From: Klebsiella phage phi1_146029
Sequence record: PP889479.1
Reading direction: 5' to 3' (one strand)
DNA length: 64,000 nucleotides
Below, one piece after another: positions 60,400 to 61,919 of the stretch. Numbering within the stretch: position 1 is the first letter of the stretch; each line of letters starts with the position of its first letter. The notes under the pieces were generated by a model. That model was not told the DNA's origin. It saw only the letters and a list, made by a program, of their open reading frames with translations, and did no database searches. The position numbers were made by a program, and so were the translations under genes.

Positions 60400-60552
60400 T
60401 CAGTTACCACCAGGACAGAACACGTTCCCGCAGAGAGGACCACCATCGTTGTCTCTGCGACCACAAGTGCTACAGAAACCACCATAATTCGGCTTCTGTT
60501 TGAGTGGAGAAACGTTTTTCTGTTGTTGAGGGACAACTTTCTTTATTTTCAT
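60400..60552 (-). CDS. Small Cys-rich peptide (50 aa)
   Basis: ATGA overlap with the stop of the PLP-enzyme gene; ...GGFCSTCGRRDNDGGPLCGNVFCPGGN. Confidence 0.25.
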   Translation of the reverse strand: MKIKKVVPQQQKNVSPLKQKPNYGGFCSTCGRRDNDGGPLCGNVFCPGGN

Positions 60553-61919
60553 TCAGGTTTAAACTCATTCACAGGAACATTTTCAGGGATAACCAACTCA
60601 GGACATGCTGCCTTCATCGGTTCTACATACGGCTTACTACCAACGATCCAGAACAGAGAGTTCTCGTTCAACAACTCTGGTTTGTGTTCCTGGATCCACG
60701 TCATTACCTTGCCTTCATAGCGAGGATGAAGTTCGATGTCACCCCATTGGTATTCCATCAGATCGTTGTAACGAACCCAATTGGTGGTGTGCAAATCCCA
60801 GTGATGAACATTAAAGCGCGGAGAACCAGTCCCTCTCTCCAGTTCTTTCGGGTCGTAACGACCTAACAGGCCAAGCAGTGAAACGCTCTTAGGGGACTGC
60901 GGAGCGTCCTTCTTACCATACAGATAATCCGGGTTGTCATGATAATGGCGAGTGAAGTCCACAATGTGCGGTAAATTGGCATATTCACCAATAATACGCA
61001 AACGGCTTTCAATGAAGTCAAGGCGATTTGGTCCAATACCGATCAGGTACACATTTTTCAGATTCGGTTTCGGGTGCATTGCCAGTCCTGTCAGGATACT
61101 GGTACAAGAGTTGCATGAACCTGCCGGGATAATCAGATCGGTAATATGATCAGGGATGTTGGCAACTTGCTCGCCACCGAGCATATGGAAGCCAGCGATG
61201 CGCTCTGAGGAATGCAATTTATGGTCCAGAGTGATCCCATACTCCAGATAATACGCCTTTGGATTCTGTTGTTCAATCAGCTTCTTACAGCGCGGCTGTA
61301 TAGTGCTGTTATAACCAGAACCGACGAAATTGAAAACGCTACCAAACCAGGCAGACATTGCCACCATGTCGTGGTTCATACAAGTGGTTGGCTTGGTTGC
61401 ACCCAGGACTGTAGTCGTATGCCCGCCGAAGTGCCGAGAGACTGCCGTCGCCATAGGGGACTGCGGACTACCAACGACAGTACCATGGATGATATCGGGG
61501 GAGCCTCCGGCTTTCAGATGCTCAACCATGAGCCAGATAGCCTGACGGAGTTTGCTGCCGTTGATACCCTGTTGCCCGTTTGCATAGTTGGACAGCGGCG
61601 CGAAGTAATCTTCACGTTTGAACCAAACCTGTTGGTTGGTTACGGGGTTGACAACAAGTTCACACGGGGTGTGTTTGTAAAGGTAGTCTTCCCAGTGAAC
61701 CAGGTTGCGGTCTAGAGAAAGAGTTTTGAAGATAGTTTTGTTGTGATGTTGAGAGATAATACCCCCCATCGACGATTCTTCCTTTAACGCATCGCTGACA
61801 AATTCTTCAAGGATATCTTGGTTGATACTACTTTCACAGCTTTGGACTGTAAATGGAGTTGTATTTGTTTCAACAACAGTTTTGATGTCATTTAAAAGTT
61901 TCTGTGTTTTATCGTTCAT
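60549..61919 (-). CDS. PLP-dependent enzyme, fold type II (ACC deaminase / D-cysteine desulfhydrase-like)
   Basis: VWFKREDYFAPLSNYANGQQGINGSKLRQAIWLM matches K(R/L)(E/D)D ... GGNKxRKL, the PLP-lysine and phosphate-loop signature of this family. Has a roughly 60-aa N-terminal extension. Confidence 0.55.
   Translation of the reverse strand: MNDKTQKLLNDIKTVVETNTTPFTVQSCESSINQDILEEFVSDALKEESSMGGIISQHHNKTIFKTLSLDRNLVHWEDYLYKHTPCELVVNPVTNQQVWFKREDYFAPLSNYANGQQGINGSKLRQAIWLMVEHLKAGGSPDIIHGTVVGSPQSPMATAVSRHFGGHTTTVLGATKPTTCMNHDMVAMSAWFGSVFNFVGSGYNSTIQPRCKKLIEQQNPKAYYLEYGITLDHKLHSSERIAGFHMLGGEQVANIPDHITDLIIPAGSCNSCTSILTGLAMHPKPNLKNVYLIGIGPNRLDFIESRLRIIGEYANLPHIVDFTRHYHDNPDYLYGKKDAPQSPKSVSLLGLLGRYDPKELERGTGSPRFNVHHWDLHTTNWVRYNDLMEYQWGDIELHPRYEGKVMTWIQEHKPELLNENSLFWIVGSKPYVEPMKAACPELVIPENVPVNEFKPE

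Follow-up and report, generated by a model that had tools for sequence, protein, structure and literature searches.

The locus at positions 60,400 to 61,919 of Klebsiella phage phi1_146029 (PP889479.1) raises the question of what a pyridoxal 5′-phosphate (PLP)-dependent enzyme might be doing next to the replication genes of a phage. The window, i.e., the whole stretch of 64,000 nucleotides that was analyzed, contains at 60549..61919 on its minus strand an open reading frame (ORF) which starts with ATG, encodes 456 amino acids and is matched by the profile phrog_3650 with an E-value of 1e-232. As a preliminary description of this DNA had pointed out, the ORF carries the signature K-R-E-D…G-x-N/S-K-L-R, here K101-R-E-D104 and N120-G-S-K123-L-R125; both motifs are present and their key residues are invariant in an alignment of 35 homologs with members down to 41% identity (alignment A1). 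The encoded protein is very probably the last enzyme of the thymidine hypermodification pathway of Ackermannviridae, which leads to 5-(2-aminoethoxy)methyl-deoxyuridine (5-NeOmdU). As such it represents an already known feature, as it is the ortholog of a purified and assayed enzyme and is ordinary for Ackermannviridae.

This assignment is primarily based on orthology. By megablast and tblastn the window falls in the Ackermannviridae, its nearest relatives being Klebsiella phages of the Taipeivirus type (Menlow, 0507-KN2-1). Homologs of the PLP enzyme were found in about 345 phage records, with the counterpart in phage phi1_146041 being 99.8% identical. In the Salmonella phage Vi01 (ViI) the gene under the tblastn match is Vi01_182 (YP_004327553.1), and Table 1 of Lee et al. 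(NAR 2021; PMC8989533) gives this accession under the name ViI gp226, with the label "PLP-dependent decarboxylase". Over 396 amino acids (residues 61-456) the window protein and gp226 are 87% identical with one gap, K123 aligns with K92 of gp226 and the gene order Vi01_181-182-183-184 is kept in the window, so that core, catalytic lysine, neighborhood, partner genes and phage family are all shared by the two. Purified gp226 is yellow, absorbs at 410-425 nm and turns O-serinyl-thymidine in DNA (345 u) into a nucleoside of 301 u, 5-NeOmdU, with labeling by 13C/15N-serine revealing the loss of exactly one carbon; the protein was modeled by Phyre2 on 1j0a and K92 was proposed as its Schiff-base lysine (PMC8989533). 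A role in DNA hypermodification, for example by decarboxylation of a serinyl adduct, had been among the suggestions of the preliminary description, and it is this reaction that is shown for the 87%-identical ViI gp226.

In the proposed route, a thymidylate synthase (TS)-like hydroxymethylase would make 5-hydroxymethyl-dUMP, which would enter the DNA in place of some of the thymidine. DNA kinases specific for 5-hydroxymethyl-deoxyuridine (5-hmdU) would then phosphorylate the hydroxymethyl group within the DNA polymer, and a serine:DNA transferase would allow the side-chain oxygen of free serine to displace the phosphate, giving O-serinyl-thymidine. In the PLP enzyme, K123 would be exchanged in the Schiff base for the free α-amine of the DNA-linked serine, and the subsequent removal of the carboxylate would yield 5-NeOmdU. 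The finished base, which blocks many restriction enzymes, would shield the phage DNA from many such endonucleases. The earlier idea of an anti-defense gene holds in this indirect way, but not in a direct sense.

The genes for the other steps co-occur with the PLP gene in the window (Table 1), namely an ADDT-domain transferase, the kinases HMUD2 and HMUD1 and the TS-like gene. The transferase is 87% identical to Vi01_199, the serine-specific gp247, the function of which has been described (PMC8989533), and kinase 2 is 72% identical to Vi01_196 (gp243). The TS-family gene follows directly after the gene of kinase 1 and scores far under the NCBIfam cut-offs for thymidylate synthase equivalogs; from PMC8989533 and a 2026 preprint on the Taipeivirus phiHS2, it is likely to encode the dUMP hydroxymethylase supplying 5-hmdU. 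A link between decarboxylase and transferase is also seen outside the window, as some of the 618 homologs found in the protein database at E<=1e-5 are fused to an ADDT domain (natural PLP-ADDT fusions P0091, P0104, and P0105). According to the preprint, phiHS2 shares this gene set, with "a PLP-dependent decarboxylase" among its members, and the virion DNA of phiHS2 contains 5-NeOmdU, which was detected by high-performance liquid chromatography-tandem mass spectrometry (HPLC-MS/MS) and amounts to ~16% of T. The modification genes have moreover been reviewed as being conserved across the family Ackermannviridae.

The predicted structure fits the assignment to fold type II. An AlphaFold2 model built from A1 reached a mean predicted local distance difference test score (pLDDT) of 85.7 and a predicted template modeling score of 0.81, with low confidence only at residues 21-57 and 338-356. 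A Foldseek search with this model against the Protein Data Bank (PDB) yielded 304 matches at E<=1e-3, of which the best 50 are all fold-type II PLP enzymes and the top 29 are D-cysteine desulfhydrases (DCyD), 1-aminocyclopropane-1-carboxylate (ACC) deaminases and the homologue 1j0a. The best matches, Salmonella DCyD, ACC deaminase and 1j0a (E 8e-11 to 1e-8, probability 1.00), share only ~14% sequence identity with the window protein; the closest solved folds are those of ACC deaminase (1rqx, 1f2d, 1tzk), DCyD (4d8t and related entries) and 1j0a. Weaker matches include serine dehydratase, SbnA, CysM, TdcB and tryptophan synthase beta, with serine dehydratase and TdcB entering the list only at ranks 31-41 (E 1e-7 to 1e-6). 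The model thus suggests a tryptophan-synthase-beta-like two-domain fold with lysine and phosphate loop in place, and the protein is predicted to be of fold type II and ACC-deaminase-like at the level of the fold, as had been proposed from the sequence.

Invariant in A1 are K101, R102, D104, N120, G121, K123, R125, S151-P152-Q153, G267, N270 and H398-P-x-Y401-E-G-K404, and all of these active-site residues are identical in ViI gp226. In an alignment of the family profile, K123 corresponds to the Schiff-base lysine K51 of ACC deaminase, Y401-E-G-K to Y294-E-G-K, the loop G267-S-C-N-S to the phosphate loop T-G-S-T-T of 1f2d, and S151-P-Q to S78-N79-Q80 of the Pseudomonas ACC deaminase. The PLP lysine and the phosphate loop, on the conservation of which the preliminary description had made its proposal depend, therefore align with those of ACC deaminase, and K123, G267 and N270 are without exception conserved. 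The Schiff-base lysine, K-R-E-D, Y-E-G-K and the phosphate-loop region are all shared with the ACC deaminase/DCyD group. These enzymes, however, carry out ring opening or elimination, whereas decarboxylation of a DNA-bound amino acid is the reaction shown for the ortholog of the window protein, and the window protein has an additional N-terminal segment and an additional loop insertion. Because the asparagine of S-N-Q is replaced by an invariant proline and because the ortholog decarboxylates on DNA, the protein appears to lie functionally outside the ACC deaminase subfamily. To our knowledge, PLP-dependent decarboxylases otherwise have fold type I or III; a decarboxylase of fold type II is unusual, which is implicit in the published work.

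A second enzyme with the same type of reaction on a DNA-linked amino acid is gp52 of the Pseudomonas phage M6 (YP_001294560), a Cα-glycinyl-thymidine decarboxylase. Both proteins share K-R-E-D…A-P-L…S-K-(L/I)-R, with K36 of gp52 aligning with K123, but they are very distant from each other (BLASTP E 0.32, hhalign E 1e-3), so that the comparison is informative only for the lysine motif. M6 gp52 has 278 amino acids and lacks both the N-terminal segment and the loop insertion, and its substrate is derived from glycine and needs a radical-SAM isomerase first.

The N-terminal extension of roughly 60 amino acids, which had been noticed before, is a genuine part of the protein. In the PHROG profile of the family and in most homologs, the sequence starts at about residue 60, and the preceding cassette comprises ~15 amino acids in Menlow, 29 in Vi01 and 60 in the window protein, with unrelated sequences that are followed by the conserved core. 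Residues 21-57 have a pLDDT of only 36-48. A GGAG Shine-Dalgarno sequence (61927-61930) lies 7 nucleotides 5′ of the ATG at 61919, and the 80 nucleotides 5′ of this ATG together with the first three codons are invariant among phi1_146029, phi1_146041, Menlow and Vi01. As start codon, Shine-Dalgarno sequence and upstream block are invariant across genera, this ATG is the true start and a mis-called start was rejected as source of the long N-terminus. The segment is probably not catalytic, since ViI gp226 is active with a different cassette. The upstream block (61920-61999) is kept from the Klebsiella phages to Salmonella phage Vi01, despite unrelated coding sequence directly behind it. It may represent a conserved promoter or leader. 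No second copy of it was found within the window, and neither a sigma-70 promoter scan nor a search for repeats of the block yielded anything convincing, and thus no repeated promoter motif.

The stop codon of the PLP gene overlaps in ATGA with the start of a cysteine-rich ORF of 50 amino acids, just as previously described. Its four cysteines (C27, C30, C41, C46) are invariant across distant phages within the core C-x-T-C-G-R-x-D-N-D-G-G-P-x-C…F-C-x-G-G-N, which marks it as a real small protein. As a 13-bp hairpin with a U-run, which is likewise annotated as terminator in the Menlow record, comes after the pair, the PLP gene and the 50-amino-acid ORF look like one transcription unit. The ORF stands beside the PLP gene in Klebsiella-type (Taipeivirus-like) phages with 92-100% identity, is absent at the counterpart site of Vi01, and in Dickeya phage PP35 and jumbo phage GAP32 its homolog lies far from any PLP gene. 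The link between this ORF and the decarboxylase is specific to the Klebsiella lineage. An obligate partnership was rejected, as the pathway of ViI, in which the site is devoid of the ORF, was reconstituted without it and as the ORF occurs elsewhere in PP35 and GAP32. Homologs of the ORF are also present in unrelated contexts in the jumbo phages GAP32, CBB and BF and in Dickeya Ackermannviridae.

Several results weigh against the assignment of the 456-amino-acid protein to the last step of 5-NeOmdU formation. The Pfam model PALP (PF00291) reached only 21.7 bits at a gathering cut-off of 35 (E 1.5e-4, residues 95-307), with a precomputed PF00291 match being present on some homologs; a single-sequence search of the PDB with the PLP enzyme gave no match; and neither the PLP enzyme nor the 50-amino-acid ORF was matched by any NCBIfam model at E<=0.01. 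The protein departs from ViI gp226 in its N-terminal 60 amino acids and in part of the loop 338-365, namely at residues 355-365, and several GenBank and UniRef records name its orthologs automatically "threonine dehydratase" or "threonine ammonia lyase". Finally, it is from the ortholog that we infer that the window protein itself would catalyze the same reaction. The database names, together with DCyD and ACC deaminase being the best structural neighbors and with the conservation of the residues equivalent to K51, Y294 and E295, would fit an auxiliary metabolic enzyme with free amino acids as substrates, be it a threonine or serine dehydratase, an ACC deaminase or a D-cysteine desulfhydrase. 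Yet identity to those enzymes does not exceed ~14%, an NCBIfam equivalog match is missing, and serine dehydratase and TdcB come late in the ranking of fold neighbors. With the S-N-Q loop of ACC deaminase being replaced by S-P-Q, with the 87%-identical ortholog decarboxylating DNA-bound serine, and with the gene co-occurring with, and at times being fused to, an amino-acid:DNA transferase, a metabolic role is highly improbable, and the earlier suggestion of an auxiliary metabolic gene could not be upheld.

It is also conceivable that the substrate is indeed a DNA-linked amino acid, but that the Klebsiella lineage uses another chemistry or another adduct, to which the 50-amino-acid ORF or the longer N-terminus could contribute, so that the final base would not be 5-NeOmdU. 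Related pathways do diversify via tailoring enzymes, and both the N-terminal cassette and the coupled ORF, which is inserted downstream in the window and not in ViI, are lineage-specific. However, the invariant active-site residues are the same as in ViI, the transferase is 87% identical to one that is specific for serine, MS/MS has revealed 5-NeOmdU in a Taipeivirus that shares the gene set, and the small ORF is found unlinked to PLP genes in Dickeya and jumbo phages. A different base appears accordingly very unlikely, hardly less so than a metabolic enzyme.

Table 1. Features of the window, with predicted functions.
Feature	Position	Strand	Basis or remark
PLP-dependent O-serinyl-thymidine (DNA) decarboxylase (predicted), 456 amino acids	60549..61919	minus	ORF, gp226 orthology, phrog_3650, fold search
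Codon of K123, predicted internal-aldimine (Schiff-base) lysine	61551..61553	minus	aligns with K92 of gp226, K51 of ACC deaminase, K36 of M6 gp52
Variable N-terminal segment, residues 1-60, missing from most family members	61740..61919	minus	cassette comparison, pLDDT
PLP-loop peptide P343-KSVSLLGLLG-R354, candidate internal clamp-binding-like motif	60858..60893	minus	disordered loop 338-356
Invariant upstream block including Shine-Dalgarno GGAG	61920..61999	minus	invariant to Vi01
Four-Cys (zinc-ribbon-like) ORF, 50 amino acids, phrog_14303	60400..60552	minus	ATGA-coupled; insertion relative to Vi01
Intrinsic-terminator hairpin (13 bp), then U-run	60361..60391	minus	dG -18.8 kcal/mol, z = -5.07
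Serine:DNA transferase (AADT / aGPT-Pplase clade 2), ViI gp247 ortholog; C-terminus PKSVNLMSLMKK	50623..51846	minus	Pfam ADDT E 4e-59
5-hmdU DNA kinase 2, ViI gp243 ortholog; C-terminus KSSNVLAMMLRK	52433..53317	minus	Pfam HMUD2 E 1e-138
5-hmdU DNA kinase 1 (ViI gp67 type); without tail motif	10388..11167	plus	Pfam HMUDK_HMUD1 E 1e-105
Thymidylate-synthase-family protein, candidate dUMP hydroxymethylase	11164..12222	plus	Pfam PF00303 E 2e-15
Family-B DNA polymerase; C-terminus KRRVNLLAMMGKKG (reference tail)	54815..57994	minus	87% identity to Vi01 polymerase
Cys-rich protein (CxC…CPVC; phrog_4789), 71 amino acids; C-terminus PKTVNLLSMMGK	18837..19052	plus	best window match to polymerase tail

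The wider neighborhood had been called T4-like. This is correct for the replication genes, as gp32, UvsX, a DnaB-like helicase, a ligase, a helicase loader, topoisomerase II and a family-B polymerase of T4 type are encoded in the window, but the phage itself belongs to the Ackermannviridae and is not T4-like sensu stricto. Between polymerase and kinase 2 the minus strand encodes an NT5C-like 5′-deoxynucleotidase (53627-54418) and a DUF7254 protein (53317-53694), both of which may be part of a remodeling of the nucleotide pool in favor of 5-hm-dUTP. A 155-amino-acid ortholog of Vi01_183 (59904-60371, minus; probable true start ATG at 60359) shows sub-threshold matches to DUF3990 and to an ART-PolyVal ADP-ribosyltransferase domain. 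The ortholog of Vi01_181 (61988-62623, minus) is 59% identical over the first 146 residues of Vi01_181 only and ends in …MSEILKFLDIFRK, which bears a loose likeness to the SLDFLF clamp epitope of T4. Genes for the tRNAs Gln-TTG, Tyr-GTA, Asn-GTT and Trp-CCA form a block (62946-63797, minus) immediately upstream of the locus.

A further observation concerns the C-termini of the pathway enzymes. The transferase, kinase 2, the polymerase and the 71-amino-acid protein share the C-terminal peptide …[VS]N[LV]L[AS][ML]M..K (VNLLAMM…K); in Vi01 the polymerase tail reads KRRVNLLSMMGKKG. A first regular expression for this motif was discarded, as it had been built from its own instances and was thereby partly circular, and as it also matched the tail-tube protein. 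It was replaced by a probe taken from the polymerase only, the 8-mer RVNLLAMM, which was scored with BLOSUM62 against all 475 ORFs of the window (43,660 positions). Its three best non-self matches are the 71-amino-acid protein (score 28), the transferase (23) and kinase 2 (22), each lying 2-3 residues from the C-terminus. The count alone is not striking, with three matches scoring at least 22 against a mean of 0.89 and a maximum of 5 in shuffled sequences; the striking part of the result is the shared extreme C-terminal position. The tail-tube protein (6529-7536, minus) ends in …EKSSLLGMLKRVGSN, similar to the shared motif, which is either chance or a caution regarding the specificity of the motif. 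No such tail was seen on a protein of 363 amino acids encoded in the window at 49066-50157. The 71-amino-acid protein has no Pfam match and may, in loose analogy to T4 gp33 only, be a small clamp-associated factor.

The PLP enzyme itself carries a candidate copy of the motif not at its C-terminus but in the loop 338-356, which has a pLDDT <50, contains a short helix (348-352) and is a lineage-specific insertion in A1. The polymerase-only probe scored 16 there, which is noise level, and a probe made from the transferase tail scored 20 (p about 0.02 in the window); a tblastn search with the 71-amino-acid protein recovered the loop peptide in phi1_146041.

Short hydrophobic peptides that are common to the polymerase tail and other phage proteins, usually at the extreme C-terminus, are likewise found in the C-terminal epitopes by which T4 gp43, gp33 and gp55 bind the sliding clamp, the genome record of T4 showing gp43 to end in …KASLDFLFG and gp55 in …SLDFLYEAND. 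The enterobacterial motif VNLLAMMxKK is, however, basic-hydrophobic, in contrast to the acidic-hydrophobic SLDFLF of T4, and the copy in the PLP enzyme is internal and statistically weak, unlike C-terminal clamp epitopes. A sliding-clamp gene was not found within the window; Vi01-like phages encode an operon of RegA, clamp loader and sliding clamp (PMC10892097).

Across lineages the tails fall into classes. Enterobacterial Ackermannviridae have VNLLAMM, phages of Vibrio and Aeromonas K(K/R)LW, a T4-like contig SLExFF, and a phage that encodes a DnaN-type clamp QSLF. In Serratia phage Kevin, polymerase, kinase 2, transferase and PLP loop read KKRVNLLAMMQKR, KSSNLLDMLLRNKK, KSANLLSMLGGKK and KSTNVMHLLFSDK, respectively. 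The Vibrio phages D504 and K364 have KKARKLW in the polymerase, KTKKLW in kinase 2, KTRKLW in the transferase, KTR(R/K)LFG in the PLP loop and KRLW in a protein of 394 amino acids. For Aeromonas phage TSW001, in which blastp found no ortholog of kinase 2, the polymerase ends in KVNVLKFFKQKEA (the class is not identical), the transferase in GKTKKLW and a protein of 386 amino acids in GTKKLW, with HTNKLWGRK in the PLP loop. On the 171-kb T4-like contig (L011) the kinase lacks the motif, the transferase has DISLERFFE, the PLP loop GGIGNFFG and a Tet/JBP protein TKASLEDFFS, and on a 183-kb contig with a DnaN-type clamp (L017) the transferase has RVQSLF, the PLP loop is absent and no kinase 2 was recognized; in both, the polymerase was beyond reach. 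A change of class in the tail goes along with a change in the polymerase tail or in the type of clamp. Two metagenomic contigs, L009 (P0034) and L013 (P0025), were uninformative, as neither polymerase nor kinase nor transferase was within reach.

When each PLP enzyme was scanned with the transferase tail of its own phage, the highest-scoring site fell into the loop for the window (p about 0.02), D504 (p 0.19) and TSW001 (p 0.06), and outside of it for Kevin and the T4-like contig. Overall, best matches lay in the loop in 6/9 comparisons within motif classes vs. 1/16 across classes.

Some of these contigs exhibit gene arrangements of their own. On L011, which is of metagenomic origin, a Tet/JBP dioxygenase (8631-12817 and 15201-17925 for the cluster and its surroundings), a PLP enzyme, an ADDT protein and P-loop kinase 3 stand in a row adjoining gp45/gp44/gp62/regA, with the Tet/JBP and ADDT proteins ending in T4-type SLExFF tails; this cluster has the appearance of a route by which oxidized thymine enters the same downstream chemistry. 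On L017 (10001-12233 and 20311-21092) the PLP homolog lacks the loop insertion, the adjacent ADDT protein ends in …RVQSLF and a DnaN-type clamp gene is nearby. RVQSLF resembles the β-clamp consensus QL[S/D]LF, for which an internal motif is known in UmuC (PMC3716654), a precedent for the internal position in the PLP enzyme. In Vibrio and Aeromonas phages a protein of ~390 amino acids with a K(K/R)LW tail is encoded downstream of the transferase (L008, 31106-32290; L014, 23359-24543; L016, 5791-6951) and may be an extra component of the pathway or one associated with the replisome.

Taken as a whole, the idea that the sliding clamp might recruit the hypermodification enzymes to newly replicated DNA, via their tails and via residues 343-354 of the PLP loop, is offered tentatively, as we regard it as possible with the balance tilting somewhat to the other side. 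Of the candidates, we consider clamp tethering of the transferase and of kinase 2 moderately likely, and that of the weakly supported PLP loop less so. A functional analogy for clamp-recruited DNA-modifying enzymes is the coupling of DNMT1 to PCNA. The terms "sliding clamp" and "clamp-binding" were absent from the two main hypermodification papers, with other matches for "clamp" referring to ParB/KorB or base stacking only; as the literature searched was incomplete, this leaves novelty unproven. The polymerase-like tail on pathway enzymes may be a new observation.

For the Klebsiella phages of the Taipeivirus-like group, the analysis confirms that they carry the complete 5-NeOmdU pathway, and "threonine dehydratase", the name that automated annotation commonly gives to this family of PLP enzymes, is incorrect. 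As DNA modified in this way withstands many restriction enzymes and is difficult to sequence or clone, this is of relevance for candidates for phage therapy. If the tethering to the clamp is true, it would explain how a post-replicative base chemistry of several steps matches a fast replisome, and the polymerase-like tail would provide a simple sequence rule for finding DNA-modifying enzymes of phages. Such a tethering would then be the phage counterpart of DNMT1-PCNA coupling.

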